DNA of 64,000 nt. Origin: Chiloscyllium plagiosum (lineage: Eukaryota). The position numbers and the translations under genes are program-made. The notes under the pieces are model-generated. The model did no database searches. It was not told the origin of the DNA and saw only the letters and a list, made by a program, of their open reading frames with translations. The stretch is taken from the NCBI RefSeq assembly GCF_004010195.1, contig NC_057718.1, positions 7,210,110 to 7,274,109 on the forward strand, written 5' to 3'. This document shows, piece after piece, positions 5,697 to 56,582 of the stretch; positions within the stretch are counted from its first letter, which is position 1; each line of letters opens with the position of its first letter.

Positions 5697-5826
5697 GGAT
5701 CCTGATGAAGGGCTTATGCCCGAAACGTCGATTCTCCTGCTCCTGGGATGCTGCCTGACCTGCTGTGCTTTTCCAGCACCACACTCTCGACTCTGATCTC
5801 CAGCATCTGCAGTCCTCGCTTTCTCC
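5697..5826 (+). mobile_element. Solo Penelope pseudo-LTR (family A) with an intact hammerhead core at 5697-5734
   Basis: GGATC-CTGATGA-A-GGGC(TTAT)GCCC-GAAA-CG-TC-GATTC, followed by the same tail that ends the RT-bearing element at 23693-23794. Confidence 0.8.
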
Positions 5827-8800
5827 AAAAGGGATAGATCTGTCCTTTTCAGAGAACCAATGGCATCTTCTTCATTTGTATCCGCAAACTGTTTAGCTAA
5901 CAAGGAGCCAATCACATTGTTGTTGACAGACAGCAGGCATGTGCAACTGATAATCGGTGACCATTTCATAGACAAATCAGCTACTTGTGGCCAGCAGAAG
6001 TCCACTGGTGCACATTTCTTGACTCCAGCTTATCTGTAACTAGGCTTCACCCATTGTTTGAACAAGTAGTTGTGTAAAAAGCACTTCCAAAGAATGTCCA
6101 ATAACTTGCTTTTAAAATGTGCAACAACTCCACAACAATCCCTCAATTATTAGATCAGCCCTTTTCTCATTCAGCAATCAATAAAATAGAAAGATGTGGT
6201 CTTAACAAAAATTTTCAGCTTCGAGATACATTGTCTGTTATTTATCTATATTATGCTATACTTATATTACTATGACAGCATGTTGATCAGGAGAAATCTA
6301 TTCCACAGCAATGCAATCCTGTTTTTAGAACTTGCAAGAATTTGCTAAACTTGTATTCACTAGTGATATTTACCTGAAGGAGCACAGGTTGAGAGAGTAT
6401 TCTCCTTGATGGGAAAAAGCTGGGATGGTTATAGGGATACCTGTAGTCTTGATTTTTCAAAGGCTGAATTCCAGGTAAAATACAACTACCAAATGTCATG
6501 TAGTGAATTTGTAGTTTTTGCATTATCTAATAATAGTCTGCTGAAAGGTGCAACATTAAACGAAAATTATCATGTAATTTCTCTGAACTATTGCAGTCAA
6601 ATGTATAATTTTCACCGAGTCCAAAAGATTACAATAAAGATATATTTATTGCAAGATTTCACATTGACATCATGCTTTTATGAAGATCAGCTATGGCATG
6701 ATGAGATGTCAACATAATCTTTGTACTTATGAGTGAGTAACCAAGTTTGGTTTATGCTGATGTTTAGCTGCTGATTCACAGGTGAAATTACAGCATTAAG
6801 TTGAGTGTATGAATCAAAGCCTCAAACACACCCTGGGAGTCCTGGGCTTATGATTGACTCAAAATAGAGAAGGTTAATTTTTGAAGGAACTGAACAAGTC
6901 ATAAGGCTTAATCAAGAACACAGAGGCAAATTGAAGCCTGGCAGGATGTGTTGTAAACTTCAGCTGAGCCATCTGCCCCCATACGTGGCAGATTGTCGTA
7001 AAGAAGGGCTGTGATCATATTCTGTAGTATCCAGGACAGTATTTAATCCTAAAGATTATATATGGTCATTTATCACCTTTGTATTAGTGAAAACTTGCTG
7101 TGTTTCCTATATCACCATCTGAATGATATTTATTGTAACATACTCTGGAGTATATTGTGTGAACTTCTTTTAGGTCTTTTCTTTGTGTTTGGGGGACCGG
7201 CACCGCGGCTATGATGAGCTGGAATTTAGTGTTGCCATTTTGGGTTTGGTTTGGAATATCAAGAACCATCAGTGGCAGGAGTGGGTTCAACTTGGAAAAG
7301 ACTAAATCCTTCCTCTCCATTCTGCAAAATGTGAGCGCGAGGAAAGAAATCTAAAGGAAGCTTCAATGAAAATGTGTCTCCGCATCAGGGTTGGCAGCCC
7401 AGAGTTTACTGCAATAATTCAAACAACATTCACTGGAATAGAATTGCAGTGCACCATGGGAGAGATGAAAGGCACACAACAGACTCTTAGAAACAAAAAC
7501 TGAAATTGCTGGGGAAAGAAAATCAAATCTGGCAGCATTGTGGAGAGAAACCAGAGTTAACATTTTAGGTCAAATGACCCTTTCTCGGAACAGGATATTG
7601 GATCTATCCCATAGATCCACCCTTTAGGCTTGTGTTGGAATCAATGGCATGGCTCATGGGTGCTCTGTTGGAGTGGCCTACAGTCAAGGCTGGTCAATAT
7701 TTACTGCTTCAGTTTCTGCATGTTTGTATATTCTGTGTCACTGCCCCAGAGGTAATTACCCTGATGCTTGTACTGCAGATTAATCTGATTCAGTGGGACA
7801 GGAGCCTGTTGGGGGACTGAGGCAGGCCCTCAGGCACCTGCATCGCTAGCACATAGTGCTGAAGGAAGGCCCACCAAATACAACCATAGCACTGCGCTCC
7901 CTCTAGTGTTCACAATCCCTCCTTCCTGTTCGCTGCTTACGAAGGTGAATTGTTAAGCTTTGCTGAATAGTGGATACATATCGCACAAATTTAACTCCAT
8001 CTCACGTTTCTTTCCTTCCTTCAAAATCGGGAGCTTGTACTTGGCGTAAAAGCTGAAAATCTGATTTTATGACGGAACACTGGATTTTGCAGCCATTCTA
8101 CACCGTTCCAGGAGCTATTGAATCTGCCTGCCTGTGATTCCAGGAAACCATTTGTCCTGTAATTCTATGGGCAGCCAACTGGTCGATCGCGGAGTCTCCT
8201 CCTGCCGCTCGTGGGTCTTCCTCATTTTCATTGCATTCCTACCATCAGCCATTAAATGAAAGAGGAGCCCCAGGAGATCAGAATTGGAAGTTTCTGAGTG
8301 AGTTCTTTCAGAGCATTATTGAGGGTACATGCCTGTGAAGTAGCCCTTTACATCCCCAGAATTGGTTGCCCTGACCAAAGCCAGGGCAAGAATATGCCTG
8401 TCGCCCACCCATGTGTTTCTGTTCATTTCTCAAAGACAGCGGCTAGGGAGACAGCAACTTTCCTGTCCACAGCTTTACCAGCCACACTGCCAACCAAGCT
8501 GACTAACCCCTCTCCAGAGATCCATTTTTTGTGGATATGCCTTGCTGTATCTCTGTGAATAGAATTGACTTCCCACACCACACCAGGCATGGTGAAGTGT
8601 TCACCACCCCGGTTGGAACTGCTTAGCATCCTTGGTCATCAACGCCTGAGGTTTATCTTTCTGAACCCAGGAAGACCCATTTTAATATTGTAGGCATTAA
8701 CCCCAAATATTTTCTTTAAAGGTTTAAAACAAAACATATTATATATAGGGGCACAGTCTCTTAAGTTTATCTCCTTCTGATGAAACAGCAAATACCAGGT

Positions 8801-8963
8801 TATCACCAGTCACTGCATTAAAATGTTCTTGCAATTCCCCCCTGTATCTCATGCCTTTGCATATGTTGAATTTTTGACAAAATGTAAGGGACTAACTATC
8901 AAGGTCACACAATATTTCATATAGTTTTAGTTTGGAGCAGACAGTCTGGCTGTAATAACTCCC

Positions 8964-9507
8964 TGTTGTGGTTCTGTTCGCCGAGCTGGGAATTTGTGTT
9001 GCAAACGTTTCATCCCCTGTCTAGGTGACATCCTCAGTGCTTGGGAACCTCCTGTGAAGCGCTTCTGTGATGTTTGCTCCGGCATTTATAGTGATTTGTA
9101 TCTGCCGCTTCCGGTTGTACGTTCCAGCTGTCCACTGCAGTGGCCGGTATATTGGGTCCAGGTCGATGTGCTTATTGATTGAATCTGTGGATGAGTGCCA
9201 TGCCTCTAGGAATTCCCTGGCTGTTCTCTGTTTGGCTTTTCCTATAATAGTAGTGTTGTCCCAGTCGAACTCATGTTGCTTGTCATCTGAGTGTGTGGCT
9301 ACTAAGGATAGCTGGTCATGTCGTTTCATGGCTAGTTGGTGTTCATGGATGCGGACCATTAGCTGTCTTCCTGTTTGTCCTATGTAGTGTTTTGTGCACT
9401 ACATTGGTCCCCTAGACAGGGGATGAAACGTCTGCAACTCAAATTCCCAGCTTGGCGAACAGAACCACAACAACGAGCACCCGAGCTACAAATCTTCTCC
9501 CAAACTT
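8964..9507 (-). mobile_element. 5'-truncated Penelope-like element: GIY-YIG endonuclease end plus inverted pseudo-LTR
   Basis: Minus frame HYIGQTGRQLMVRIHEHQLAMKRHDQLSLVATH..AREFLEAWHS; ~62-bp inverted copy at 9409-9471; 21-bp direct flanks at 8951-8971 and 9508-9528. Confidence 0.9.
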
Positions 9508-13275: not shown

Positions 13276-13432
13276 TGCAGTTAGAACAGTCTACTCTGTT
13301 TTGATCTCTGCTTGTTTAATCCTTTACAGTGACTCAATTCCAGCTTTTGTCAGGTTATGGAACGCAAATTTGGTTTGTTACTCTTTGCCATTGTGGCTGC
13401 AGCAGGAGTATTAAACAAGGGAGTGTTCCTGA

Positions 13433-14449: not shown

Positions 14450-14657
14450 GTAATGAAAAGGGTGGCGCTGGAAAAGCACAGCAGGTCAGGAAGCATCCAA
14501 AGGAGCAGGAAAGTCATGTTTCGGGCATAAGGCATGTGGCATTCTTGATGAAGAGCCTATGCCCGAAACGTTGACTCTGCTGCCTGACCTGCTGCGTGTT
14601 TCCAGCACCACACTTTTCGAAATTGATCTCCACCATCTGCAGTCCTCATTTTCTCTG
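14450..14657. mobile_element. Hairpin-type Penelope pseudo-LTR insertion (family A)
   Basis: Inverted arms GCTGGAAAAGCACAGCAGGTCAGG / CCTGACCTGCTGCGTGTTTCCAGC; degenerate hammerhead TTGATGA..GCCCGAAACGTT; AGATTTTCA duplicated at 14441-14449 and 14658-14666. Confidence 0.75.
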
Positions 14658-20513: not shown

Positions 20514-20611
20514 TCCTCATTCCTGATGAAGGGCTTTTGCCCGAAACATTGGTTTCCTGCTCCTCGGATGCTGCCTGACCTGTTGTGCTTTTCCAGCACC
20601 AGTCTAACCTT
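20514..20611 (+). mobile_element. Solo Penelope pseudo-LTR (family A) inserted in a SINE
   Basis: CTGATGAAGGGCTTTTGCCCGAAACATT; 14-bp TSD GTCTCTGGATTAAT at 20500-20513 and 20612-20625. Confidence 0.8.
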
Positions 20612-20950
20612 GTCTCTGGATTAATAGTCTAGCAATAATACCACGAGGCCGTTGCCTCCCTGAGAGTTGTACTGTTTACAATGTTTGCACCGTTAAATGT
20701 TTATAATGAGTTGATGGGGTAGATGGAAACTATTCCCTGTGGTGGGGGATATCAGAATAAGGGATAGGTAGTTTAAAATTGGAGGGGCAGGCCATTCAAG
20801 GGGAACACAAAGGGTGGAGGAGAGCTGGTGTACTCTTTCCCCCAAAGCTGTCGAGGTTGGAAAGTGAAATTGATAGATTTGTGCTGAGCAAGGGTTTTAC
20901 AGTTTAAGGGGACCAAGGCTGATGAATGAAGATACAGATCAGCCACAATC

Positions 20951-23792
20951 ACCGCCTTCCTAACCTGAGATCTTCTTCCCGACCTCTCCGCCCCCACCCC
21001 AGTCTGACCTATCAACCACAACAAAACGACGGTTGGAGGAAGAACGCCTCATCTTCCGGCTAGGAACCCTCCAACCACAAGGGATGAACTCGGATTTCAC
21101 CAGTTTCCTCATTTCCCCTCCCCCCACCCTGTCTCAGTCAAATCCATCAAATTCAGCACCACCTTCCTAACCTGCAATCTTCTTCCCGACCTCCCCGCCC
21201 CCACCCCAGTCTGACCTATCACCCTCACCTTGACCTCTTTCCACCTATCACATTTCCGACGCCCCTCCCCCAAGTCCCTCCTTCTAACCTCAGACATGGA
21301 GAATGTTTGGCCAGTAACTTCAAGTCTCTCTTTGTTTTTCTCTCTTATATTCCTGGTTCAGGATAAGTGTGGTCTTTCTACATGCAACACTCACCATGTT
21401 TTGGCCATGTCACCATCTGATCTACTGTTCATTGTTTTTTATGTTATATTTTGCAGATTTGCATATTGTTATTATCATCAATCATGTTTCCTGGGCATCA
21501 CTCCTGCTTGTAGTGTAATCTACATTCTCAGTCACTTGACCATTGACTTGGACCCAACCAGGACAACCAGTACCTACAACAAATCCGAAGCCTCCAGCAA
21601 CAGATGTCCCTCCGGATCCTCCGCTCCACGCTTGCAGCCATGCGCCGCTATCTACATTCCCTGCAACTCGACCTACCCCAGCTCAGGACAATACTCTCAC
21701 AGACCTGTAAAGGACCTCTAAAGTTCTTCATCCACAGAAGGATCCATAAACTAAACAAACAGTTCTTCCTGGCTATATCGGAAATCAAAGACAGTAAGTA
21801 CCAAAAACTTTCATGTACTTACCCCCACACTCCGGATTCCTCAACTGTTCCAGAATCTTCCATTGGCCTCCGAAATCAGTCTGGCGCCATTACACACGCG
21901 GCCGCTACATCGCCCGATGCAATACCTGCCGCCGCCGATGACGTCACCTCCGCCCCCACCGACCTCGCAGCCTCCGCGATCGCCGCCCAAACAACCGCCT
22001 CCGCGATCGCCACCCAGACAACCGCCTCCGCGATCGCCATGAAGACAATCGCCGGCAGATTCGCGACCTCCACGGCTATGGGGAATAACTCTGTCTCTGC
22101 GGTCGCCGCAGCCACTTCCGCCCCCACTGACGTCACTAACCTACACGCCCACAACGCCGCATGTGTCTCCGCCCCCACGCCGATCTCCACGCCTAACCCA
22201 GCCCCTTCGCCGATCTCCGACTGCATGCCTCACCATGGACATCCAGTCCCTGTACACCTCCATCCCCCATCCCACGAAGGACTCAAAGCCCTCCGCTTCT
22301 TTCTTTCCCGCCGTACCGACCAGTACCCTTCCACTGACACCCTCCTTCGGCTGACTGAACTGGTCCTCACCCTGAACAACTTCTCCTTCCAATCCTCCAA
22401 ACGAAAGGAGTAGCCATGGGCACCCGCATGGGCCCCAGCTATGCCTGCCTCTTCGTAGGATATGTGGAACAATCCATCTTCCGCAACTACACTGGCCCCA
22501 ACCCCCACCTTTTCCTCCGCTACATCGATGACTATATCGGCGCCGCCTCGTGCTCCCACGAGGAGGTTGAACAGTTCATCCACTTCACCAAAACCTTCCA
22601 CCCCGACCTCAAATTCACCAGGACAGTCTCAGATTCCTCCCTCCCCTCCCTCGACCTTTCTATTTCTATCTCAGGCGACCAAATCAACACGGACATCTAC
22701 TANNNNNNNNNNNNNNNNNNNNNNNNNNNNNNNNNNNNNNNNNNNNNNNNNNNNNNNNNNNNNNNNNNNNNNNNNNNNNNNNNNNNNNNNNNNNNNNNNN
22801 NNNNNNNNNNNNNNNNNNNNNNNNNNNNNNNNNNNNNNNNNNNNNNNNNNNNNNNNNNNNNNNNNNNNNNNNNNNNNNNNNNNNNNNNNNNNNNNNNNNN
22901 NNNNNNNNNNNNNNNNNNNNNNNNNNNNNNNNNNNNNNNNNNNNNNNNNNNNNNNNNNNNNNNNNNNNNNNNNNNNNNNNNNNNNNNNNNNNNNNNNNNN
23001 NNNNNNNNNNNNNNNNNNNNNNNNNNNNNNNNNNNNNNNNNNNNNNNNNNNNNNNNNNNNNNNNNNNNNNNNNNNNNNNNNNNNNNNNNNNNNNNNNNNN
23101 NNNNNNNNNNNNNNNNNNNNNNNNNNNNNNNNNNNNNNNNNNNNNNNNNNNNNNNNNNNNNNNNNNNNNNNNNNNNNNNNNNNNNNNNNNNNNNNNNNNN
23201 NNNNNNNNNNNNNNNNNNNNNNNNNNNNNNNNNNNNNNNNNNNNNNNNNNNNNNNNNNNNNNNNNNNNNNNNNNNNNNNNNNNNNNNNNNNNNNNNNNNN
23301 NNNNNNNNNNNNNNNNNNNNNNNNNNNNNNNNNNNNNNNNNNNNNNNNNNNNNNNNNNNNNNNNNNNNNNNNNNNNNNNNNNNNNNNNNNNNNNNNNNNN
23401 NNNNNNNNNNNNNNNNNNNNNNNNNNNNNNNNNNNNNNNNNNNNNNNNNNNNNNNNNNNNNNNNNNNNNNNNNNNNNNNNNNNNNNNNNNNNNNNNNNNN
23501 NNNNNNNNNNNNNNNNNNNNNNNNNNNNNNNNNNNNNNNNNNNNNNNNNNNNNNNNNNNNNNNNNNNNNNNNNNNNNNNNNNNNNNNNNNNNNNNNNNNN
23601 NNNNNNNNNNNNNNNNNNNNNNNNNNNNNNNNNNNNNNNNNNNNNNNNNNNNNNNNNNNNNNNNNNNNNNNNNNNNNNNNNNNNNNNNNNNNACGTCGAT
23701 TCTCCTGTTCCCTGGATGCTGCCTGACCTGCTGCGCTTTTCCAGCAACACATTTCCAGCTCTGATCTCCAGCATCTGCAGACCTCACTTTCT
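20951..23792 (+). mobile_element. Penelope-like retroelement (probably Neptune-type), rearranged and non-functional, spanning an N gap
   Basis: Endonuclease C-terminus RRLEEERLIFRLGTLQPQGMN (~21027); N-terminal ORF; RT motifs TMDIQSLYTSIP, GVAMGTRMGPSYACLFVG and RYIDD; pseudo-LTR tail after the gap; CCACAATC duplicated at 20943-20950 and 23793-23800 inside a CR1 tail. Confidence 0.88.
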
Positions 23793-25804
23793 CCACAATC
23801 TAATTGAGTCTCGAATTAAGACATGAGAGACTGAATGGTCACTTCATGTTTGTGTGTTCCTTGACTCTGTAAGTGCAAACATTACAGCTGTTTGTGAATG
23901 AGCACCTAACTGCCTTTCATTGGGACTATGTATTTTTCTTGGTTTACAGTTTTGTTTTAAAATGGCTAGCCTGTAATGACCAGTGAAGTTAGGAGGACAA
24001 GTTGAATTTTGTAGAAGCTTTTCCAAATCCAAAGTGTACATTCTGCAATTGTGCTACACATTGACTGGGCTAAGTTGATGCTGAGTTCAATGGAAAGAAC
24101 ATCAATATATGAAACCGGTCTTGTAAAATAGGTAAAAACTAGACATGGTTGATAAACTGCTAGAGGAGTCATACATGTCATTTCAGTCTGTCAACGACAA
24201 TGCATTACAGAGATGCCAAGAGTGAAATATTGCTGAAATTGAGGGAATGAAGAGGGTGTTTGGTTGACAAAACAGGCAGAAAAAGTGAGGAGACGGTTCA
24301 TATCTAAAAAAGAAACTCCTGAGAGATGACCTGATGTGGTGAGGGGTTAAGATTGTGGAAAGGTTGATTGGGGAGATGTGGAGCAGATGTTTCTACCTTA
24401 TTGCTGTTTCTTCACTGTCGCTGGGCCAAAATCCTGGATTTCCCAGAATTGTGGGTGTACCTACGTCAAATAGACTGCAGCTGCTGAAGAAGGCAGCTCA
24501 CCACAAACCTCCTAACTGCTGACCTAGTCAGTAATGGCATCTCCTGTAATGAATAAACACACTTGTGGTGGAGAATCTAAAACTAGGAATTGTCAGTGTA
24601 TGATGTGAAACCTACTACTACGTGATGTTGATGGAATTAAAGAGAAGCTGGTCAAACATGAGAGTGAAAAAAAGGGAAGGATATTATGATATGATAATAG
24701 GAAGATGTGGGAGAGGCATTTAGAAAAACCTCATATGGAGCGTTTGATTTTGTAGCGTGGATATGTAATAGGAGTAGCTGAAGAATTCCCATGTGACTGT
24801 TTTATCCTTGTATTTTGTTGTGCTCAACCTTCCTGCTGGGCCAGGTACAACATAGCTCTCCTCTTTGCTTGCAGCACAGTATCAATTCTGGCTGTTGGCT
24901 ATATGTATGAACAAACGTATATCGCTTTTGGTTCTTTAGTCAATAGCTGTAAATCTCCACCCTCTGGATCCTGTCGTTTGGGAGTGAATTATTTTTGTTT
25001 ACTCTGTCCATACCCTTCATGATTTGCACACCTAAGTCAAGTCCCAACTCTCCTTCCCCAAATTTGGGCTTTTTTCCATCTATCCATATCCTGAAGTCTT
25101 TCATCTCTGAAGCCATTTCTCTGTTGACCCTGTCCAAAGCCTTCATATCCTACCTTGAGCGCAGTGCCCAGAGTGAACCAAATACATGTTTTAGGGTGGG
25201 TTGGAGGAGTCAAAACAGCCAAGAAGAGGAAAGAAAATGCATCAAATAAAAATACATTTTGTATTTCTGATTTTGTAAAGAGCGACTCCTCATGGACTGC
25301 AGGTTGACCACTGCGACTGTATGATTTCTTAACAGATGATCCATCGCTTCCTGTTACACACTTCCTCGTGCCTCAGTTCCGGCCTGTCCCTGTCTGTGGC
25401 TTTGGAAGTTCCCTCACTCCCTGTGCTGGCTTAATTCCACGCTTGTCCTTGGCTACGTTCATCCTCAACGTCCCCCAATGATTTCACTGCGCTGACCTGC
25501 TACGTGCTGTGTACTGTTTTAATTAATCTTGGATTGACAGCTTTCGCTGCCCCTGGGAAAGATTGTTTCCTGTGCCTTATGCTGACTTCTGCAGAGTGCA
25601 GAGCCAGAAGTGATATGTCTGGTTCTTCTGCGTGTTTTCTAAAAATGGATTTTAAATAATATTGAGTTTGTGCATGTCAGTAGGGAATGCCTGAGCAATA
25701 TATTTTGTAAAGCAATTCAAAATTGTATTAGCATTATTAGGTTAGACATAGAGCTCGCCTATCTCCATACTCCTCCATTGGAGGTTAAGAATCCCACTGG
25801 TCTA

Positions 25805-31715: not shown

Positions 31716-32205
31716 TCCCCAGGATGTGTGTAAATTACTTCAAGGCACTGCTGTAGGAATAGGTGAAATCCCATGGATGACCCTGCTGATAACTATCCAT
31801 CAGCAAACGTGTAAAGCAGGTTATCTGGTCATCAAATTCATTGTTGCTTGTTGAGCACACTCGTTGCAAATCAGCCTTCCCAAACCCTATATTACAACTA
31901 TGCCCGCACTTCAAAACTACTTCATTGGCTATAAATCCTTTGAGATGTTTCATGATTCCTGGCAGGTTGTTTAGCTCAGTTGGCTAAACAGCTAGAATGT
32001 GATGTGGAATGACACTGTTCATTATGGTCTTATTCCTAGAGATCAGAGAGTTTTACAGCACGAAAACAGATCTTCGGCCCAACTCGTCCATGTTGACCAG
32101 ATATTCCAAATTATCCTAAATGAGGTCTACTTTATTTAGTCTACCTCATTTAGCCCTTTGCATCTAACATAATACCCCTCAAGCTGAATATATATTAGAA
32201 CATAG

Positions 32206-32429
32206 CTGAAAAATTTGTTGCTGGAAAAGCACAGCAGGTCAGGCAGCATCCAAGGAGCAGGAGAATCGACGTTTCGGGCATAAGCCCTTCTTCAGCCTCA
32301 TTCCTGATGAAGGGCTTATGCCCAAAACGTCGATTCTCCTGCTCCTTGGATGCTGCCTGACCTGCTGCGCTTTTCCAGCATCACATTTTTCAGCTCTGAT
32401 CTCCAGCATCTGCAGTCTTCACTTTCTCC
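32206..32429. mobile_element. Hairpin Penelope pseudo-LTR pair (family A) with a hammerhead motif on each strand
   Basis: Inverted arms span ~32219-32378; minus core CTGAAGA..GAAACGTC is intact, plus core has GAAA>AAAA; TSD ATATA(T/C)TAGAACATAG at 32190-32205 and 32430-32445. Confidence 0.85.
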
Positions 32430-32440
32430 ATATACTAGAA

Positions 32441-34620: not shown

Positions 34621-34859
34621 ATAGTCATGATTTGGAGATGCTGGTGTTGGACTGGGGTATACAAAGTTAGAAATCACACAACACAAGATTATAGTCCAAC
34701 AGGTTTATTTGGAAACACTAGCTTTTGGAGCGCTGCTCCTTCAGGTGATTGTCCTGATGAAGGAGTGACCACCTGATGAAGGAGCAGTGCTCTGAAAGCT
34801 AGTGCTTCCAAATAAACCTGTTGGACTATAACTTTGTATTGTGTGATTTTTAACTTTGT
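34621..34859. mobile_element. Hairpin Penelope pseudo-LTR insertion (family B) with hammerhead at 34770-34804
   Basis: CAC-CTGATGA-A-GGAGC(AGT)GCTCT-GAAA-GC-TA-GTG; ~85-bp inverted arms; 10-bp TSD CATCCTCCAT at 34611-34620 and 34860-34869. Confidence 0.82.
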
Positions 34860-34916
34860 CATCCTCCATGTAGGATGCTGCAGATTGCTTCACAGGGACA
34901 TGATCAGCCAAAAGGA

Positions 34917-39691: not shown

Positions 39692-39912
39692 CAGACAGGC
39701 AGAAGGCTGGAAGAACACAGTAAGCTAGGCAGCATCAGGAGGTGCAGAAGTCGACATTTCAAGTGTAACCCCTTCTTCAGCTCTGAAAAAGGGTTACACC
39801 CAAAATGTTGACTTCTGCATCTCCTGACACTGCCTGGCTTGCTGTGTTCTTCCAGCCTCCTGCCTATCTACTTTGGATTCCAGCATCTGCAGTTTTTTTT
39901 TGTCTCTAACCA
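39692..39912. mobile_element. Hairpin Penelope pseudo-LTR pair (older, degenerate hammerheads)
   Basis: Inverted arms AGGCTGGAAGAACACAG / CTGTGTTCTTCCAGCCT; CTGAAAAAGGGTTACACCCAAAATGTTGAC; near-identical TTTTT..AATTTGAAAG at both flanks. Confidence 0.7.
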
Positions 39913-42619
39913 AGTTTTTTTTAATTTGAAAGGCATTCCTTGCCCCCAATGTCATCAATACCTGCCACAATTTGACTCTAGTCAATTGCAATCACCATAA
40001 AAAAGGAAAGTGACCAGCAGAGTTCTCATGACCTCCTGTTGACTAATCAATCTCTCAGTGCAGCTGTTCATCACACACACGTAGCCAAAGGAACTAGTTC
40101 AGTGGATTAAGCAATGAATCAATTACTCCTTAAGTATGAGGGAATCCTTTTCTATTTCGGGCAAGTCTTTTCAAATCATCTGAGCTTCATTTTTCTATGG
40201 GTTATACCCTGCTGGCATAATTTCCCATCTGAAAGGTGTTAGCAGTTCAAATCCATGTCACTGTGTCAAAATATCTGTGGAAAATAGAGCTTTTTTTAAG
40301 GATGAATGACATTGGTGGTGTATGGCGCAGAAGGAGGCCATTTGACCCATCGTGCAAGTGTCCATCCTCTAAAGGAACTATCCAATTAATCCCCCAGCCC
40401 TCACTTTCTACGTTTCCTTGAAATTTCTTGTTTACCAATCTAGCACCCTTTTGAAAGCTTACTATTAAATCTGCTTCCCCACCATCCTTTCAGATAGTGT
40501 GTCCCAAATCTTAACAACACACTGGGCTTGATTTTGCGTTAGCTATGCAGCTTCCCTTCCTGTCATTTGCAGATGTAGTAGAGGCCCCATGTTTGTTCCA
40601 AAAGAAAGGCCTGATCGAATTGACTCACCAGGCATTTAACTGGCCAGCATCAGGCTGCCCATACAATTAAGGACGCTATAAGATAGGAATTCTTCCCCCA
40701 AGAATTGCCAGCCATTCTTGATAGTGCCATTGGGAACAGTGACCTCTGTTGGTGATACCCTGAAGTGCAAACTCAGAATCAGTGGTGGGACCCAGAACAC
40801 AAGTGAGTGAGGACAGCATGAGTTTGTGCATGTGTTAAGAGGAGTTGGAGGAAAGGTCAGGGAGTGGTTTTAAGAGATGCCCCCCCACTTCCAAAAACTC
40901 TTGGTGAGGCACAAAGTGCCTTAAGTACACAAGAAGCATCACTAGACCCAAAACGTTAATTCAGCTTTCTATCCACAGATGCTGCCAGACCTGCTGAGTT
41001 TTTCCAGCAATTTCTGTTTGTGTTACTGAAACTCATTGCGTGTGGTATTGACACTGCTGCTTTGTTTGTAGATGGCCGGGCATGCGTGTGTGCAGGCGCG
41101 TGTGTTTGTTGAGTGAGGTCTGACTAGGTTTGTTTCTATTGTAAAGAGTCATGGATGCTAAAGATCATCAGTCTGATGATGACTCTGATTAGTTCCTGAG
41201 TAGCTGAACAACATGTTTGTGTGAGCAATACAGTAAAAGACCTTTGGAACTCTGAAAAGGCAGGATGTGAGTTTGCTCACTGCAGTACAAATGCCTGGAA
41301 AAAGCCTTTTTTTTTCACAGCAAATGCTGCAGTTACCTTTTAACCTGTGAAATAAAAGAATTTATAGTTAGTCTACCAATTGGCCTGTAGAATCAGGTCT
41401 GCCAAGATGAGTGTTTGTTCAGCATGAATTGGCTTTACTGCGAAGAAGAACTTTGATTGTTACTTTGTAAGCGTGAACTTTCCTTACCTGTATTGGCTAT
41501 AATGCCATTCCAGCCCCATTATTTTAAATGGCAGGGCTATTGTGCAATTTTCTTATATTGTGAGATTACGTGAGAATGGAACCACCACGTTTTATCAGAA
41601 CCAACTGTACTTCTGACAAAGAAGTGAAAGGAACCTGGAGAAAAAAGATTGAAGAACAGAGGTCCTGGCAAGTGAAAGGATCATCTCAGTGCGCCCTCTG
41701 GACTGCTGCTGTTCCAGTTTTCCCCAGGATCCATAAAGCAATGATTTTGTTTGTTTGTCTGTGTCTGTATGTGTGTATAAGGCATTAGATTTTGTAACTG
41801 ATAGAACCATATGTTGATAAGTCATAGCTGTTTACTTGTGATTAAATTTACTTGATTATAATAAACAAAAGTTATGGTTAAGTATAGGAACCTGGTCAGT
41901 GTTTTTTATTAACTTGTTTCCAACAGACTTTGTGTGGTTTTATTAGACCATTAACCCTTATGGTGACCCTTAGACAAGTGGATCTCCAGGATCTACACAC
42001 TTTCCCAAGTAAGTTGTAGCACCTTTTATATCGGGGATTTGAAGTAAACTACTGTGATAAAAACCTTTTTATTATTTGAGCAAGTAAATTACAAGTTGGA
42101 TAAAGGAGAACCTGTAGATGTGGTGGATTTAAAGTCCCAAGATAATTCAATAAGTTGCAATGTCAAAGGTTGCTACACATATAAAAGCATATCTTGACAC
42201 TTTGGAAGATACAATAAATGATTTACGAGGATAATACCAGGAATAAGAGGTCACACCTATTAAGGCATTCTGAAGAAATTGGGAGCTCTTTAGTATGACA
42301 AAGGGAAGGCCAATGGTTGACCAAATAGGGCTCTTTAAGAGTCTGAAAAGCCTCCATATAATAAGGGAGCAGCCTACGGTATTCTGGGACGATGATGAAT
42401 TTCACTTAAGGGTGAACACTTTTTGAACAAAAATATATGTATAAAAAAATATATGGATGTAGTCATAGACGCAGTTCGGAGTGTCAGTAGCATATCAAGG
42501 AAACCAACCTTGGAATTTGAATCTATCCAAACAAACCGAAGACACGTCTTACTTGAACCAGGTTATATTTACATACATTTGAAGCAGTAGGAATGTCCGA
42601 TAACTGAACGGATCCCCAT

Positions 42620-42859: not shown

Positions 42860-45582
42860 GTAATTGACAAAGAGGTGAAAGTAGGTGAGGATCTGGAAAC
42901 AATCACTATCACAAAATAGGTAGTGCTGGGCAAGCTAATAGAGCTAAGGACAGACAAGTCTGGCCCTGATGAAATGCATCCAAGTGTGCTAAAAGAGATG
43001 GTAGGAGAAATAGCAAATACATTTGTGGTAATTTTCCAAAATTCACTGGATTCTGGGGCAGGTCCAGCAGATTGGAAAACAGCAAATGTGACACCACTGT
43101 TTAAAAAGGGAGGTAGACAAAAGGTGGGGAATTATAGACCGGGTATCTTAATTTCTGTAGTGGGGAAAATGCTTGAGTCTATTATCCAGGAAGAAATAAC
43201 AAGGCATCTAGATAGAAATTGTACTGTTGGGGAGACGCAGCATGGGTTCGTGAAGGGCAATTCATACTTAACTAATCTTCTGAAATTCCATGAAGACACT
43301 ATGAACACAGTGGACAATGGGGACCCAGTAGATGTGGTGTATCTAGATTTCCAAAAGGCATTCAAAAAGGTACTGCACAAAAGGCTGCTGCATAACATAG
43401 AACATTACGGTGCGGTACAGTCGGCCCTCAATGTTGCACTGACCTGTGAAACCATTCTGAAGCCCATCTAACCTACACTATTCCATTATCATCCATATGT
43501 TTATCCAATGACCATTTAAATGCCCTTAAAGTTGACCAGTCTACTACTGTTGCAGGCAGGGTGTTCCACTACTTCTGACATCTGTCCTATATCTGTAACC
43601 CCTCAATTTAAAGTTATGTCCCCTCGTGCTCGCCATCACCATCTGAGGAAAAAGGCTCTCACTGCCCACCCTATCTAACCCTCCGATTATCTTGTATATG
43701 TCTCCGTTAAGTCACTTCTCAACCTTCTTTCTAACGAAAACAGCCTCAAATCCCTCAGTCTTTCCTCATAAGGCCTTCCCTCCATAACAGGGAACATCCT
43801 AGTAAATCTCCCCTGCACCCTTTCCAATGCTTTCACATCCTTCCCATACAATGTGGCGACCATAACTGTATGCAATACTCCAAGTGCAGCTGCACCTGCG
43901 TTTTGTACAGCTGCAACATGGCCTGATGGCTCTGAAACTCAGTCCCTCTACCAATAAAAGCTAACACACCCTATGCCTTCTTAACAACCCTATCAACCTG
44001 GGTGGCAACTTTCAGGAATCTATGTACACGGACGGACACAGATCTCTCTGCTCATCCACACTGCCAATAATCTTACCATTAGCCCAGTACTCTGTATTCC
44101 TGTTACTCCTGCCAAAGTGAATCACTTCACACTTTTCTGCATTAAACTCTATTTGCCACCTCTCAGCCCAGTTCTGCAGCTTCTCTATGTTACTCTGTAA
44201 CTTGCAACATCCTTCAGCACTGTCCACAACTCCACCGACCTTAGTGTCATCCGCAAATTCACTAACCCATCCTTCTACATCCTCGTCCAGGTCATTTATA
44301 AAAATGACAAACAGCAGTGGCCCCCAAACAGATCCTTGTGCTACACCACTCGTAACTGAGCATAAGGTAAAGATGCAAGGCATTACGGCCAATGTATTAG
44401 CATGGATAGAGGATTGGTTAACCAATTCAAAGTCAAGATTGGACTCATCAGCCACTTAAGACCCATAAATAGATCAACGGAATGAAGACCCCGAGGGATA
44501 GCCATGATGCTGATGACAGTTAACCAACAGGAAGCAAAGAGTGGGAATAGATGTGTCTTGTTCTGGTTATCAAACACTGACTAGTGGTGTGCCTCAGGAA
44601 TCAGTATTGAGACCGCAATTATCCACAATTTCCATAGATGATTTGGAGTTGGGGGCCATGTGTAGCATGTCAAAGGTGACATTAAGATGAGTGGTAGAGC
44701 AAAGTGTGCAATGGACTATGAAACTCTGCAAAAGGACAAAGATAGTTTAAGTGAGTAGGCAAAGGTGTGGCAGATGGAGTACAATGTTCATACATGTGAA
44801 GTCATCCATTTTGGTTGGAATAACAGTAAAAAGGACGATTACTTGAATGGTAAGAAATTGCAACACGCTGCTATGCAGAGGGACCTGGTTGTCCTTGTGC
44901 ATGAATCACAGAATGTTAGACTGCAGGTGCAACAAGTAATTAGGAAGACAAATGGAAGTTTGACCTTCATTGCTAAAGAGGTTGAGTTTAAAAGCAGGAA
45001 GGTAATGTTGCAGCTGTACAGGGTGCTGGTGAGGCCACACCTGGAGTACTGCGTGCTGTTTTACTCTCCTTACTTGAGAAAGGATGCCCTGGCACTAGAG
45101 AGAGTGCAGGGGAGGCTCACTAAATTGATTCTGGAGTTGAGGGGTTGGCTTATGAGGACAGACTGAGTAGACTGGATTATATTTGTTGGAATTCAGAGGA
45201 ATGAGGGGGGATCTTTTAGAAACATCAAATTATGAAGGGAATAGATAAGATAGATGTAGAGAGGATGTTTCCACTGGTGGGTGAAACTAGGACAAGAGGG
45301 CGTAGCCTCAAAATTAGGGAGAGCAGATTTAGGACTGAATTGTGAAGGAACTTCTTCACCTAGAGGGTTGTGAATGGAATTCCCTGCCCAATGAAATGGT
45401 TAAGGCTTCCTCAGTAACTCGTTTTAGAACTAAGATAATTTTTTGAACAGTAAAGGAATTAAGGCTTATGGTGAGAGGGTGAGTAAGTGGATCTGAGGCA
45501 TGAAAAGATCAGCCATGATCTTATTGAATGGCGGAGCAGGCTCGAAGGGCCTCATGGCCTACTCCTGCTCCTAGTTCTTACG
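42860..45582 (+). mobile_element. CR1 LINE RT region, interrupted by two nested insertions
   Basis: KSGPDEMHP..WKTANVTPLFKKG..NYRP..QHGF..VDVVYLDFQKAF, resuming at 44361 with VLAWIEDWL..GVPQ..RPHLEYC and the tail. Confidence 0.92.
43396..44359 (-). mobile_element. Nested antisense CR1/HER1-like LINE
   Basis: SGVAQGSVWGPLLFVIFINDLD..FADDTKVGG on the minus strand; GCATAA duplicated at 43390-43395 and 44360-44365. Confidence 0.9.
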
Positions 45583-47452
45583 TAATGAGTGGTAGTTGCT
45601 AATAAATCCAATCAGGAATTCAAGAGAATACTTTGTACCCAGAGAGTGATGAGAACTCACCTGCAAGTAGTTTTAAAGTATAGTTGGTGTATTCTGAGAG
45701 CAATGAGGTTCATACATGAGTACTCATCGCAGGTGTAGTCCAGTTATGCTGAATGGTCAATTTCTGTGCAGTAATACTATATACAGCAGCTCACCTGGGA
45801 GTGGTGTTATCTGGGTGCAGTTGAAGTAGAGTGCATATTTAATTCTTCAATATAGTGTCTTATCTCAATGAAGACAAAATGAACAAAAGGTTAAAAGAAG
45901 CAAGTGTTTATTTGGTGGGAACATTACTTGTGTTGTGAAGATGACTCACTGACATATTTGACTCAGTGTAAAAATAGGAATTCAAGGTTATTTCAACAAA
46001 GGTACTTTAATCTCTGAGTTGGATACAATACCTGTCTAGACTCAAACCAACAGATTATACTGTTGTCATGTTAACTCTCCTCGTAAATACCACTCACAGT
46101 GAAAAGTAACAATTTTAACAGTGGGACTTGAGCATGCTATCACACATCTACAGTCAGAGATTGCAGCTTGGTAACTGCGTTGTGTGAAAATCTTGCAAGG
46201 TCATGGGAAAAGGGCAGGGGACTGAGACTAATTAGATCAGTCCTTCAAAGAGCCAACACAGGAACTAAGGGCCAAATGGCTTTCTTCTGTGTTGCAAGAA
46301 TCTCTGCTGAATTTGCTTTCATAATTAACTTGAAGTTTCTTTTGACTAATGATGAAACAGTGGAGGCAGTATGTACCATTTAAAGAAACATGCAGTAACT
46401 CACTGCAGTAACTACCCCAGGGTATTTCAGTAGCATCTTCCAAGCCTGCAACCTCTACCATCGAGAGGGACAATGACAGCAGATATATGGGAACACCGCC
46501 CGCTGTAATTTCCCCTCCAAGCCACTCATCCTGACTCGGAAATGTATCGTCAACAAAAGCGAACGATTATTCAAGATGTGATGTGAATATCTGCTGTAGA
46601 AGCTCAGCAGGTCTGGCAGCATCTGTGGGAGGGAGTTAATGTTTTGAGTCCACTGTAACTCTTCAGAACACGAAGGGTTTGGAAAATGTTTTTTAAATAC
46701 TTTTGACAGATGAAGGAGGGACAAGGGGAACAGATGGTGTGGAGTGCAAAAAATAGTGGGTTGCTAAATGTGTTGAAACAAACAGAAATGTAAAATGGGT
46801 GTAAGTTAAGGTGAAAAGGGGAGAAATTGGGTTGTCTCTACTGACAGTAGAATTAACAAAACAGTTAAGACAAAGTTGCTCCTCGGATGCTGCTTGATCT
46901 GCTGTGCTTTTCCAGTGCCACACTTTTCGATTCTGATCTCCAGCGTCTGCAGTCCTCACTTTCACAAGCAAGTCAAAGCCATGTGGTGGGAAGGGTATGT
47001 AAGGAAGATGGAAAACAGACATCCATGCATTCAGACTCTGATGTACGGTTGTTGAGAATTTCAGCATTTCCTGAAGTCCGAAGTGACTTTGTAAGATCCG
47101 GGGGGGGGGGGGGGAGGTGATGACGAGTCTGTTCTGATGAAGAGTCATTAGCTCTGCTTTCTTTCAGATGCTGCCAGACCTGCTGAGCTTCTCCTGTTTC
47201 AGATCCTGTGGGGATTTGACCAAGCAGATATCAAAAGGATGCTTCCTCTTACTGGAAAATGTAGAATGTTGGGTCATAGTTTAAAAATAAAGGGCTGTCC
47301 ATTTAAGTGAGGACGAAATAAAACTCTCAGAGGATTATGAGTGTTTGGAACCCCTTTTCTCAAAAGGCCGTGAATGCAGAATCTTTAAATGTTTTTTAAG
47401 GAGAGGGAGATAGATTACCAAGGCGTGAAGAATTATTGGCGGATATGCAGGA

Positions 47453-47581
47453 TTCCTGACGAAGGGTTTATGCCCAAAATGTCGATTCTCCTGCTCCTCA
47501 GATGCTGCCTGACCTGCTGTGCTTTTCCAGCACCACATTCTTGACTCTGATCTCCAGCATCTGCAGTCCTCACTTTCTACT
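47453..47581 (+). mobile_element. Solo Penelope pseudo-LTR (family A) in a CR1 tail
   Basis: Decayed core CTGACGAAGGGTTTATGCCCAAAATGTC; 12-bp TSD GGATATGCAGGA at 47441-47452 and 47582-47593. Confidence 0.82.
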
Positions 47582-48189: not shown

Positions 48190-49905
48190 TTTTTAATTTC
48201 AAAAATATACTTTATTCATAAAATTATTTGGATCTCTATACAATTGGTCATGCCATTCTTATGCACACGTTACATTTCTTTACTTACAAATACCGAAATT
48301 AATCTTTCATATATACAAGTCTGTACATTGACTATCCAGCTATTCTGCTGAGGTGTCAGCGGTGCCCAATTACTGCACGGGCCCCCTGTTCTTTGGCAGG
48401 CAGACGCTACACGGTGGTCTTTCCTCACTGCGCCTTGGCGGCAGCTGCCCCAAGCTTCAGCGCGTCCCTCAACACGTAGTCCTGGATCTTGGAATGTGCC
48501 AGTCCGCAACACTCAGTCGGGGTCAGCTCCTTCAGCTGGAAGATCAACAGGTTTCGGACAGGCCAAAGAGCGTCTTTCACCGAGTTGAAGATCCTCCAGG
48601 CACAGTTGATGTTCGTCTCGGTGTGCATCCCGGGGAACAGACCGTAGAGCATGGAGTCCCGCGTCACAGAGCTACTCGGGACGAACCTCGACAAACACCA
48701 CTGCATTCCTCTCCAGAATTCCTTTGCGTAGGCACATTCCAAAAGGAGGTGTGTGACAGTCTTATCCCCCCCGCAGCCACTTCGAGGGCAGCATGCGGTG
48801 CAGCAGAGCGTCTGGACGTGTATAAAGGATCTCACAGGCAGAGCCCTTCTCACCACCAGCCAAGCCATGTCTTGGTGCTTGTTGGAAAGTTCTGGCGATG
48901 AGGCATTCTGCCAAGTGACTGCCCAGGGAACCGCTTGATAGGATCCACCCTCTCCTTTTCCCGACGGGTTTCAAGGACACTACGTGCTGACCACTTCCTG
49001 ATGGACTTGTGGTCAAAGATGTTTTTCTTCATAAATCTCTCCACAAAAGACAGGTGATACAAAACATGTCCAACTACTCGGAGCGTTCCGCAGCAGCGAG
49101 GCCAGGCCCATCCTTCGCAACACCGGGGACAGGTAGAACCTCAGTACGTAGTGACACTTGGTGTTTGCGTACCGGGGATCCACGCACAGCTTGATGCAGC
49201 CACACACAAGGATGGCCATCAGGGTGAGGGTGGCATTGGGCATGTTTTTCCCCCATTGCCCAGGTCTTTGTACATTGTGTCCCTTTAGACCCAGTCCATC
49301 TTTGATCTCCACATGAAGTGGAAGATGGCCCGGGTGACTGCAGTGGCACAGGTTCTGGGAATAGGCCAGACCTGTGCCACGTATAACAGCAATGACAGTG
49401 CCTCACACCTGATGACCGGGTTTTTTCCCGCGATGGACAGCAACTGTTGCTCCCATCTGCCCAGTTTCTGCCTCACTTTGCTGATACGCTCCTCCCAAGA
49501 CTTGGCGCATGCCCCAGCCCTTCCAAACCAAATACCCAGCACCTTCAGGTCGTCAGTCCTGACAGTGAAGGGGATCGAGGATTGGTCGGCCTAGTTCCTG
49601 AAGAGCATGGCCTCGCTCTTGCCTTGGTTGACCTTGGCCCCTGAGGCTCATTCGAACTGGTCACAGATGCGTATGGGTCTATGCACGGACAGCGGATCCG
49701 AGCAGAAAACAGCAACGTCATCCATGTACAGGGAGGCCTTAACCTGCAGGCCCCCGCTGCCAGGAATAGTCACCCCTCTCAGGCTCGTATCCTTCCTGTT
49801 GGATTCGGCAAATGGCTCTATGCAGCACACAAACAAGGCAGGAGAGAGAGGGCTGCACTGCCTGACTCCAGATCTGACTGGGAAGCTATCTGATTCCCAC
49901 CCATT
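48190..49905 (-). mobile_element. L1-clade (Tx1-like) LINE, 5'-truncated and frameshifted
   Basis: SGVRQCSPLSPALF and SLYMDDV RT motifs, LSIAGKNPVIR, C-terminal zinc knuckle CPRSGCGGDKTVTHLLLEC, AATAAA and A-rich tail. Confidence 0.9.
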
Positions 49906-49947
49906 ATGTATTATTGTAACTTATCCTTGCTTAAAGTGCATCAGTCA

Positions 49948-50804: not shown

Positions 50805-50837
50805 GTACTTCAAGTCCTCCAAGCAATATTAATGAAA

Positions 50838-52125
50838 AGGGTTCATGAAAGGCAGGTCACCTTTAACTAATTTACTGCAATTCATTGAGGACATTATGAG
50901 CACGGTGAACAATGGGGAACCGGTGGATGTGGTGTATCTGGAGTTCCAGAAGGTATTCGACAGGGTGCCACACAAAAGGCTGCTGCATACGATAAAAGGT
51001 GCACAGTGTTTCAAGTAATGTATTAGCATGGATAGAGGATTGGTTAACTAACAGAAAGCAAAGAGTGGGGCTAAATGGGTGTTTTTCTGATTGGCGAATA
51101 ATGGCTAGTGGTGTGCCTCAAAGATCAGTGTGTAGACCATAATTGTTTACAATTTCCATAGATGATTTGGAGTTGGAGACCACGTGTAGTGTGTCAAAGT
51201 TCAGAGATGACATTTAAGATGAGTGGTAGAGCAAAGTGTGAAGAGGAAACTGAAAGTCTGCAGAGGGATGTAGATAGGTTAAGTGAGTGGGCAAGGATCG
51301 AATAGATGGAGTACAATGATGGTAAATATGAGGTCATCCATTTTGTAAGCAATAACAGCAAAATGGACTATTATTTAAATGGTGAAAAATTGCAGCATGC
51401 TACTGTGCAGAGGGACCTGGGTATCCTTGTGCATGAATCACAAAAAGGTTGGATTGCAGATACAGCAGGTAAACAAGAGGGCAAATAGAATATTGTCCTT
51501 CATTGCTAAAGGGCTGGGGTTTAAGAATAGGGAGGTTATGTTGCAGCAGTACAGGGTGCTGCTGATGCCACATCTGGAGTACTCCGTGCAGTTTTAGTCT
51601 CCTTTTTTGAGAAAGGATATACTGGCACTAGAGGGGATACAGAGGAGGTTCACCAGGTTGATTCTGGAGTTGAGAGGGTTGCTTCATGAGGAGAGATTGA
51701 ATAGACTGGGACTATACCCACTGGAATTTAGAAGAATGGGGGGGGGGGGGAGTCTTACAGAAACATAGAAAATTATGAAGGGAATAGATAAGATAGAGGC
51801 CAAGAGGTTGTTTCCATCTGTGGGTGAAACTAGAACTAGGGGGCGTTCCCCCCTCATAATCAGGGGAACAGATTTAGGACAGAGTTGAGGAGGATTCTTT
51901 TCACCCAAAGGGTTGTGAATTCCCTGCCCAGTGAAACAGTTGAGGCTACTTTGTTGAATGTTTTTAAGGTGACGATAGATTTTTGAACAGTAACGAAATT
52001 AAGAGTTACGGCGAGAGTGCGGGTAAGTGGAGCTGAGGCCATGAAAAGATCAGCCATGATCTTAGCGAATGGCGGAGCAGGCTTGAAGGGTCAGATGGCG
52101 TACTCCTGCTCTGAGTTCTTATGTT
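50838..52125 (+). mobile_element. CR1 LINE RT 3' portion, same subfamily as 42860-45582
   Basis: GFMKGRSPLTNLLQF..VDVVYLEFQKVFDRVPH through the tail. Confidence 0.88.
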
Positions 52126-55774: not shown

Positions 55775-56300
55775 GCTTCCAGTTGCCTGCCACTTTAACA
55801 CCCCACCCTGTTCCCTAGCCAACACCTCTGTCTCAGGCTTGCTGCAGTGCTCCAGTATAGCTCAGCGCAGGCTGGAAGAACAACACCTCATTTCCACTTG
55901 GGGACCCTGCAGCCCTCAATACTGAGTTCAGTCATTTTCGGGCCTGAACTCCCCCATGTCCCAGTTCCCTACCCCACATACCAGGCCTTGTTATCTCACA
56001 CAATCTGCCATTACACACTACCTATTGTTAGTCACTAAAAGCCCCAATTAACAGCTATTCACCCACCCAGCCAGATTGTTATCAACTCCTTTGTCCCAAC
56101 TGTTTTCTCTCTTTGGGCTCTATCCCCACCTATCAGTTACTCCTTATCTCCTCCCCACACCCTATCTTCTGCATGTGAACTGGCATTTTCCCAGCTACTA
56201 TCAGTTCTGAGGAAGGATCACCGGACCCGAAACATTAACCCTGATTTCTCTTTACAGATGCTGCCAGACCTGCTGAGCTTTTCCAGCAACTTCTGTTTTT
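55775..56300 (+). mobile_element. Penelope-like 3' end: GIY-YIG C-terminus, UTR and family-C hammerhead pseudo-LTR
   Basis: VACHFNTPPCSLANTSVSGLLQCSSIAQRRLEEQHLI..LGTLQP, then GTT-CTGAGGA-A-GGATC(ACCG)GACCC-GAAA-CA-TT-AAC at 56204-56239. Confidence 0.82.
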
Positions 56301-56364
56301 GATCAGAGAGAGACTTCCTGTTGTGTAATACAGTTATTTTTAAATGGGAACGTTTCTGCAAGTG

Positions 56365-56582
56365 TTTAGATTAGGGTGGTGCTGGAAAAGCACAGCAGGT
56401 GACGCAGCATCTGAGAAGCAGGAAAATCAACGTTTCGGGCAAAAGCCCTTCATCAGGAATAGGGCTTTTGCCCAAAACGTCGATTTTCCTGCTCCTCAGA
56501 TGCTGCCTCACCTGCTGTGCTTTTCCAGCACCACTCTGATCTAGACTCTGGTTTCCAGCATCTGCAGTCCTTGTTTTTACCG
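56365..56582. mobile_element. Hairpin Penelope pseudo-LTR pair (family A)
   Basis: Intact minus-strand core ATTC-CTGATGA-A-GGGC(TTTT)GCCC-GAAA-CG-TT-GAT at ~56425-56460; imperfect 14-bp TSD CGTTT..CAAGTG. Confidence 0.82.

Follow-up and report, generated by a model that had tools for sequence, protein, structure and literature searches.

Why does one stretch of a cartilaginous fish genome contain, again and again, the core of a hammerhead ribozyme, with stems that change from copy to copy? The question is raised by 64 kb of Chiloscyllium plagiosum DNA (assembly GCF_004010195.1, contig NC_057718.1, positions 7,210,110 to 7,274,109 of the forward strand). This whole stretch is called the window, and all positions are given in its own coordinates. 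It belongs to a 3.56-Gb genome depleted in CpG (observed/expected 0.31), and it is dense in interspersed repeats and interrupted by two stretches of N (1310-2190 and 22703-23692). An initial annotation, made from the letters by a reader working without tools, had attributed the motifs to the minimal type I hammerheads found in the pseudo long terminal repeats (pseudo-LTRs) of Penelope-like elements (PLEs). Our analysis agrees with this attribution. With a probability that we put at roughly 0.88, the motifs are minimal, helix-III-less type I hammerhead motifs, located in the 3' untranslated region (3' UTR, the pseudo-LTR region) of at least five PLE lineages. This reading is supported because the hallmarks of the motif, the endonuclease open reading frames (ORFs) on the same strand, the structure of the copies and the pairing of the stems all agree.

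Hammerhead motifs and their families

The lineages are at least five in number, here named A to E. In every family the core is kept as C3 U4 G5 A6 N7 G8 A9, followed by G12 A13 A14 A15.1 and then by U16.1 H17, and the only variable core positions are N7, which may be U, A or G, and H17, for which C, A and U are found and G in no family form. The two intact window copies at 5702 and 34773 have this conserved core, with an H17 that is not G. The loop of helix III is absent, and A15.1-U16.1 is a palindrome, ACGU in families A, C and D and AGCU in family B, which in some copies has decayed at its CpG to ACAU or AUGU. A single unpaired base stands between A9 and G10.1, an A in families A, B, C and E and a U in family D. 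An extra base after A9, together with a palindrome in the absence of helix III, had been noticed in the initial annotation, and both hold in families A to D. The stems of these four families are as follows.

Family A: helix I AUUC/GAUU with U.U; N7 U or A; bulge A; helix II GGGC/GCCC; 15.2-16.2 CG; H17 C
Family B: helix I CAC/GUG; N7 U; bulge A; helix II GGAGC/GCUCC; 15.2-16.2 GC; H17 A
Family C: helix I AGUU/AACU, up to 6 bp; N7 G; bulge A; helix II GGGUC/GACCC; 15.2-16.2 CG; H17 U
Family D: helix I GCA/UGC; N7 G; bulge U; helix II GUCACC/GGGGAC with one A.G; 15.2-16.2 CG; H17 U

One subfamily of A has a fully paired helix I (AUUC/GAAU), and the helix II of lineage E (39706-39893), deduced by comparing its two arms, is GGGU/ACCC. 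The G10.1-C11.1 pair is present in the common forms of A and C. In exact patterns counted genome-wide, C11.1 is found 17,811 times vs 5,610 for T11.1 in family B, and 4,146 vs 340 times in family D. The helix II sequences of B and D quoted in the initial annotation are present as stated in the window, and the U11.1 that they contain is CpG decay of the commoner C11.1 form. Of the first 100 genome matches listed for the 34-base motif of D, 92 are identical.

Helices I and II differ between families while pairing is kept, in agreement with the proposal of several parallel lineages with changed but pairing stems. This was quantified on 115 matches to a covariance model (R1, described below) in 330 kb, forming 101 distinct rows. 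Pairing is found in 82.0% of cells vs 75.5% in shuffles (reached by 0 of 500), falls to 10 to 51% when the partners are slid, and 9 of the 10 pairs have two-sided changes; the test rests on few independent events, mainly A vs C, with an alignment fitted to the model. The stems of B and D were compared by eye.

The families are not equally distant. A and C are homologous from -68 to +28 and in their tail, and a conserved tail is common to A, C and E; comparing A with B, A with D and B with D, nothing is common but the core. The 'unrelated contexts' in which the motif had been said to recur are therefore an apt description of B and D, which share only the core with the rest, and not of A, C and E. 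The common tail contains a block of about 36 nt, GATGCTGCC(T/A)GACCTGCTG(T/A)GCTTTTCCAGCA, found at 5744-5787, 20564-20607, 32346-32389, 40975-41018, in the 47498-41541 region, and at 56254-56297, 56496-56539, 57460-57503 and 63021-63064. This block is more conserved than the hammerhead stems and includes an invariant 5-bp hairpin (UGCUG/CAGCA) showing no covariation. It may be a recognition part for the reverse transcriptase of the element.

The descriptor used to detect the motif in the window requires helix I and the core, then helix II (with a bulge allowed before it) and GAAA, complementary bases at 15.2-16.2, and finally U16.1 and H17. In its strict form (helix I of at least 3 bp, helix II of at least 4 bp, complementary 15.2-16.2, U16.1 and H17), it matches the window twice, at 5702-5729(+) and 34773-34801(+), and matches none of 300 simulated first-order Markov sequences. 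The relaxed form gives four window matches, adding 20523(+) and 56429-56456(-), for a simulated mean of 0.003 per sequence. The bare pattern CTGANGA-N(5-30)-GAAA, with 12 matches vs 5.98 expected and 12 reached in 1 of 100 shuffles, is by itself weak evidence, being enriched about twofold. The R1 model, trained on 13 real copies of families A, C and D, recovers ten window sites at E<1e-6: 5695, 8997(-), 14538, 20516, 32261(-), 32297, 47449, 56200, 56422(-) and 7552-7595(-). Family B, left out of the training, is not detected by R1 in the window.

Both kinds of search had been suggested along with the initial annotation, and their outcome is in line with it. The sequence quoted there is present at 10 of 10 listed sites, and all ten are real; the list is incomplete, as the site at 7552-7595(-) was missed and about 25 PLE tail fragments are recovered when the window's own copies serve as BLAST queries. 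The two predicted cuts, after 5729 and after 34801, both fall directly after H17, a statement that concerns position only.

Endonuclease ORFs and structure of the copies

GIY-YIG endonuclease ORFs precede the A, B and D motifs on the same strand, and motifs stand about 85 to 140 nt before the 3' end of the element. Samples of 30 A, 30 B and 30 C loci were taken from the genome (with labels such as L030 and L053). In two A loci, L030 and L014, the end of the ORF carries a C-x4-C-x2-C motif and reads IIYCIRC..YIGESG..REH..VAQHFN, with a stop codon about 250 to 260 nt upstream of C3, and in the UUAU subfamily of A (L069) about 120 nt separate the end of the endonuclease match from the motif downstream. 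For family B, the endonuclease-like ORF of L053, 30% identical to the endonuclease of A, ends about 490 nt upstream, and its B-type C-terminus recurs in L050 and L056. Family D has its ORF in the window itself (9021-9398, minus strand), reading YIGQTGRQL..EH and extending into the motif, so that its TAG stop codon lies within loop 2 of the hammerhead 9001-9040(-); in the ESM Atlas, this ORF clusters with the eukaryotic 'GIY-YIG domain-containing protein (Fragment)' at 0.93. The sole A.G mismatch of the D helix II falls in the last sense codon of this ORF. A genome search with the Pfam GIY-YIG model gave one weak match among the 150 candidates scored out of 14,403.

Four other candidate associations were not retained. 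The endonuclease near the C copy of L073 was not assigned to C, as A-type hammerhead matches flank it on both sides, and the long upstream homology of L069 and L079, likewise weighed as a link of C to an ORF, is a mosaic of other repeats. The long sequence downstream of some A copies is not a PLE interior: in L007 it is the endonuclease of a long interspersed element (LINE) on the other strand. Finally, the A-like endonuclease of L039 is probably that of another copy rather than the partner of the B motif, the B-specific upstream homology being shorter than 80 nt. In L007 (1533-2434, minus strand), the A-type copy abuts this apurinic-type LINE endonuclease ORF, and a similar LINE-type downstream sequence is common to several A loci, which may hint at a preferred target.

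Copy number was estimated with exact family patterns, each with a reversed-pattern control. The 28-mer of family A has 21,180 genome copies, the patterns of family B 23,421 in total, the 30-mer of family C 604 and the patterns of family D 4,486 in total, with reversed controls at 0 for every pattern. The A-type 12-mer half-motif CTGAWGAAGGGC occurs 205,203 times vs 144 for its control.

The copies have a stereotyped structure. The 30 A loci share one 3' end, reached about 95 to 140 nt past C3, and their upstream extents vary from 0 to 360 nt. An inverted partner is present within 700 nt upstream at 6, 13 and 11 of the 30 loci of A, B and C, respectively. This is the insertion pattern published for PLEs, whose copies are strongly truncated on the 5' side, occur as partial tandems and have at their 5' end a truncated copy in inverted orientation (PMC8557442; here and below, statements taken from cited sources refer to the available portions of their texts). 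Partial same-strand tandems also occur, as in L026. Head-to-head pairs with 0-24 nt between cores, both arms together adding at most 24 nt, number 10,461 for A, 1,945 for B and 136 for C genome-wide. In the first 50 head-to-head A loci of the listing, the spacers, read by eye, are GAATC/GATTC in 10, GAAT-N-ATTC in 6 and GAATTC in 2. Such stereotyped spacers place the end of the A arms some 4 nt upstream of C3. Most B arms stop at -7 to -10, and those of C at about -5 to -7. The window contains five tight head-to-head pairs (three of A, one of E, one of B), with arms 11 to 21 nt apart, as well as a C pair that shares a junction (62991) and a wider D pair, whose copies are 6 nt apart. The window copies are mostly decayed, for example by G12 to A (32301 and 47453), by C3 to T (14543) or by CpG decay to ACAU. 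They are listed below.

5697..5835, plus strand: family A copy of the UUAU-loop subfamily, with a strictly intact hammerhead at 5702-5729 followed by the conserved tail; predicted cut after C17 at 5729; R1 54 bits, E 1.2e-14
7490..7595, minus strand: decayed family C copy with tail, core now CCGAGAA; R1 match
8959..9400, minus strand: family D copy with 5'-truncated GIY-YIG ORF 9021-9398, hammerhead 9001-9040 and a tail of ~45 nt; U11.1 CpG-decay variant
9407..9477, plus strand: family D inverted arm, 5'-truncated, starting inside helix II; head-to-head with the D copy 8959-9400
14459..14655, both strands: family A head-to-head pair, 14459-14531 (-) and 14543-14655 (+); plus-arm hammerhead decayed, C3 to T
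20516..20618, plus strand: family A copy, UUUU loop, intact core; ACGU decayed to ACAU
23693..23798, plus strand: family A tail starting at the end of the N stretch 22703-23692; its hammerhead, if present, is inside the N stretch
32197..32430, both strands: family A head-to-head pair, 99-nt arms 93% complementary and 8 nt apart; hammerheads 32261-32301(-) and 32297-32338(+), the plus one with G12 to A
34653..34875, both strands: family B head-to-head pair; plus arm 34765-34875 with a strictly intact hammerhead 34773-34801, predicted cut after A17 at 34801
34653-34743, minus strand: minus arm of this B pair, core damaged
39706..39893, both strands: lineage E head-to-head pair, A-like; both cores decayed
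40924..41022, plus strand: decayed family C copy; BLAST
46592..46673, minus strand: decayed family C-type copy; BLAST and R1
46877..46963, plus strand: family A tail without hammerhead, 5'-truncated; BLAST
47449..47578, plus strand: decayed family A copy; G12 to A, C15.2 to U
56195..56320, plus strand: family C copy, intact core, A.C mismatch in helix II; ACGU decayed to ACAU
56373..56577, both strands: family A head-to-head pair; minus arm with intact core 56429-56456, plus arm beginning at G10.1
57431..57509, plus strand: family A tail, 5'-truncated inside helix II; BLAST
62919..63067, both strands: family C-type head-to-head pair, junction inside helix II

Cleavage, dimerisation and 5' ends

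How could a hammerhead without helix III cut? Two motifs, carried either by one two-copy transcript or by two transcripts, would pair their palindromes A15.1-C-G-U16.1 (AGCU in B); the paired palindromes would form a shared helix III, and each core would then cut after H17. Dimer cleavage is proposed here by analogy with published PLE hammerheads, for which it was reported by Lunse et al. (as cited in PMC6765202). In the window, almost all copies are dead insertion relics, and few if any could cut, because they are 5'-truncated, CpG-decayed or oppositely paired.

Several results weigh against the reading of the motifs as PLE hammerheads, or against their cleavage as dimers. Rfam gives no match to the window at gathering score, and no hammerhead is present among its 21 matches at E up to 10. 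The match of the A-type ORF to Pfam GIY-YIG (E 0.0012, 19.5 bits) is under the curated cut-off of 22.6; family C has no ORF link in its 30 loci, and no reverse-transcriptase domain is found beside any motif, the ORF bodies being largely N. In the commonest A form, helix I is reduced to 2 contiguous pairs followed by the U.U mismatch, and the minimum-free-energy fold pairs part of the core instead. When dimers are predicted, the ACGU helix is formed for D only; such thermodynamic folds, whether of monomers or of homodimers, are not decisive for the dimer model. Head-to-tail A pairs, searched on the same strand with a period of 127 to 157 nt, number 323 genome-wide, 32-fold fewer than head-to-head pairs, with a few real arrays among them, and this scarcity counts against the dimer model because a dimer within one transcript needs them. 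In the window, neither the repeat families nor the BLAST matches include two hammerhead-bearing units arranged head-to-tail. According to published work, PLE hammerheads are poor cutters in vitro, and insertion in vitro does not require cutting (PMC4209133, PMC11167929).

The 5' ends of the copies point in the same direction. They were determined in 73 unselected tail-anchored A copies, of which 39 start between -9 and +7 of C3 (8 of these being limited by a short query), 16 further upstream and 18 further downstream; the predicted cut site, at +28, is the 5' end of only one. As the 5' ends pile up near helix I and not at +28, the usual template is an uncleaved RNA ending near helix I, and cleaved RNA is not a common template. 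An extra G, as a cap signature, is found at 1 of 6 simple 5' ends and is thus unsupported. The 5' end of the RNA, a stop of reverse transcription, snap-back and two-sided priming are all possible causes for ends in this position. The sequence of A and C at the start of helix I, TCATTC or TCAGTT, looks similar to the consensus of initiator elements. In some same-strand pairs (e.g. C8:3991140, C8:4014958 and C5:7512921), the element's own upstream 3' UTR resumes at 7 to 12 nt beyond the predicted cut site of the first hammerhead and leads into the second, as if the template had been switched shortly after the motif.

One tentative and rather doubtful proposal is that the hammerhead marks the 5' end of the most-copied RNA, the motif being a dimerisation element or end-marker that gives hairpin insertions, at least as much as a cutter. 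The thousands of independent A, B and C insertions that end a few bases upstream of helix I, many of them as near-perfect head-to-head pairs, would fit this proposal. A discrete RNA of ~140 nt, starting at helix I, would be reverse-transcribed to its 5' end, and doubling could then occur either by snap-back of the cDNA or by priming of both cut DNA strands on two RNAs joined by the palindromic helix III.

Three other explanations have to be considered. That the motifs are chance matches or microRNA-like hairpins is scarcely credible, even though the enrichment of the bare core pattern is no more than about twofold and Rfam, in E-value mode, places weak microRNA-family matches on the palindromic copies, all far below gathering scores. 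These weak matches arise simply because head-to-head element pairs are palindromic, and chance is contradicted by the 0/300 null of the descriptor, by the covariance-model matches in the window and by thousands of exact genome copies with 0 reversed controls. A second explanation would accept the motif and question its activity: it could be kept mainly for a role other than cleavage, such as palindrome-mediated RNA-RNA dimerisation or a binding or stop signal for the protein of the element, cutting in vivo then being rare or absent. We regard this as unlikely. Which positions vary (N7, H17) and which are invariant is exactly what a catalytic hammerhead allows and requires, a coincidence that dimerisation alone hardly explains, and cutting, by dimers or in the presence of protein, is documented for PLE hammerheads (PMC4209133, PMC11167929, PMC6765202). 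The explanation by another role draws its strength from the 5' ends, at the cleavage site in 1 of 73 A copies vs 39 of 73 between -9 and +7, from the 10,461 head-to-head vs 323 head-to-tail A pairs, from the weak helix I of the main A form, and from the Anolis element, in which hammerhead mutants are without effect on insertion in vitro and no reads end at the cut site (PMC11167929).

The last alternative concerns the copies rather than the motif. Most of them could be short units of ~140 nt, extending from just upstream of helix I to the tail, and not truncated autonomous PLEs; they would be solo pseudo-LTRs or parasites of the PLE machinery comparable to short interspersed elements (SINEs), related to animal non-LTR retrozymes. 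The 39 of 73 A copies starting between -9 and +7 and the stereotyped spacers (arms ending about -4 in A, -7 to -10 in B and about -5 to -7 in C) argue for such units, and in a 2026 preprint the origin of retrozymes is traced to PLE pseudo-LTRs (Li et al. 2026 bioRxiv). Long copies are nevertheless continuous from the ORF through the motif, the tandem arrays that define retrozymes are rare here (323), and the spacer search sees only pairs adding at most 24 nt over both arms. Short units are a serious possibility for most copies, on which we would still not bet. The reading of the motifs as hammerheads in the 3' UTR of PLE lineages is the one retained below.

Neighbouring repeats and relation to known hammerheads

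The window contains several other repeats. A tandem array at 59956-61400 has a 19-base period (two repeat families that overlap, 47 to 61 copies), and beside it stands an inverted repeat (58074-58522 / 59511-59959) whose 449-nt arms, 91% complementary, are 988 nt apart. LINE fragments are found at 42920-45583, 50839-52124 and 48425-48970(-), with Pfam RVT_1 at 42920-43471(+) and 44012-44455(-) and zf-RVT at 48425-48970(-); two LINE segments, about 80% alike, are 6.5 kb apart. Another short repeat has copies at 5386-5695, 29641-29859 and 61585-61898, and its end adjoining the A copy at 5697 looks, from its letters, like a reversed head of a tRNA-derived SINE; ARAGORN calls no tRNA in the window. 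A further tandem repeat, at 21943-22137, has a 27-base period and lies within long open frames (21547-22413), before the N stretch 22703-23692; it is GC- and CpG-rich, which is unusual for this CpG-poor window.

The canonical type I hammerhead (Rfam Hammerhead_1, presumably accession RF00163) shares the catalytic core and the order of helices with the motifs described here, which in contrast have neither helix III nor loop 3 and no loop-loop tertiary contacts. The minimal hammerheads of PLEs are much closer, and the motif shows all four of the hallmarks published for them (PMC4209133; Cervera and De la Pena 2014). As in the window, helix III is missing and 15.2-16.2 is palindromic; A9 and G10.1 are separated by an unpaired base, G10.1 pairs with C11.1, and helix I is short. 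Genomes have several consensus families that differ by compensatory changes, dual motifs occur on opposite strands, and most copies are solitary and truncated (PMC4209133). Helix II has 4 to 6 bp here vs 7 to 8 bp in the Schistosoma families. The hosts named in the available part of that paper are bony fishes, coelacanth, frog and reptiles, and cartilaginous fishes are not among them (PMC4209133).

The Anolis Poseidon element PAc (Frangieh et al. 2024, PMC11167929) offers a second comparison. It is likewise a PLE with a GIY-YIG endonuclease and a hammerhead without helix III; in both cases the motif overlaps the coding sequence in one lineage, and cleaved RNA is not the main template, as judged for PAc in vitro and by RNA-seq (PMC11167929). 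The overlap is placed differently, the start of the PAc ORF overlapping helix II whereas the stop codon of the D ORF lies in loop 2, and the A and B motifs differ from PAc in standing about 120 to 490 nt after the stop codon.

Animal non-LTR retrozymes were reportedly described by Cervera and De la Pena in 2020. Like the copies described here, they are short non-coding units that bear type I hammerheads and are related to the pseudo-LTRs of PLEs, and they are reported in the sole Chondrichthyes species sampled in the preprint, as far as its available text goes (Li et al. 2026 bioRxiv). They are however defined by tandem arrays yielding circular RNA, whereas here head-to-tail pairs are rare (323) and head-to-head pairs dominant (10,461). 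Apart from this Chondrichthyes species, no paper combining a hammerhead ribozyme with a cartilaginous fish was found among the literature matches listed. The term 'uncatalogued', applied to these lineages in the initial annotation, is accurate as regards Rfam (no hammerhead match up to E 10) and goes too far otherwise, as the kind is already published. The members described here come from a new host group and are present at very high copy number.

The 205,203 A-type 12-mers, together with the 23,421 B, 4,486 D and 604 C exact patterns, put PLE hammerhead motifs at a few hundred thousand copies in 3.56 Gb, roughly one per 15 kb. The about 205,000 A-type 12-mers compare with about 4,000 motifs quoted for coelacanth and 9,000 for Xenopus, counted with different criteria. 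As this kind of hammerhead is already published, the finding leaves the knowledge of ribozymes unchanged, and it confirms that the class is recognisable from sequence by a reader working without tools. Finally, the 32-fold excess of head-to-head pairs, the pile-up of 5' ends by helix I and the stop codon of D in loop 2 all bear on the purpose of the hammerhead in PLEs.

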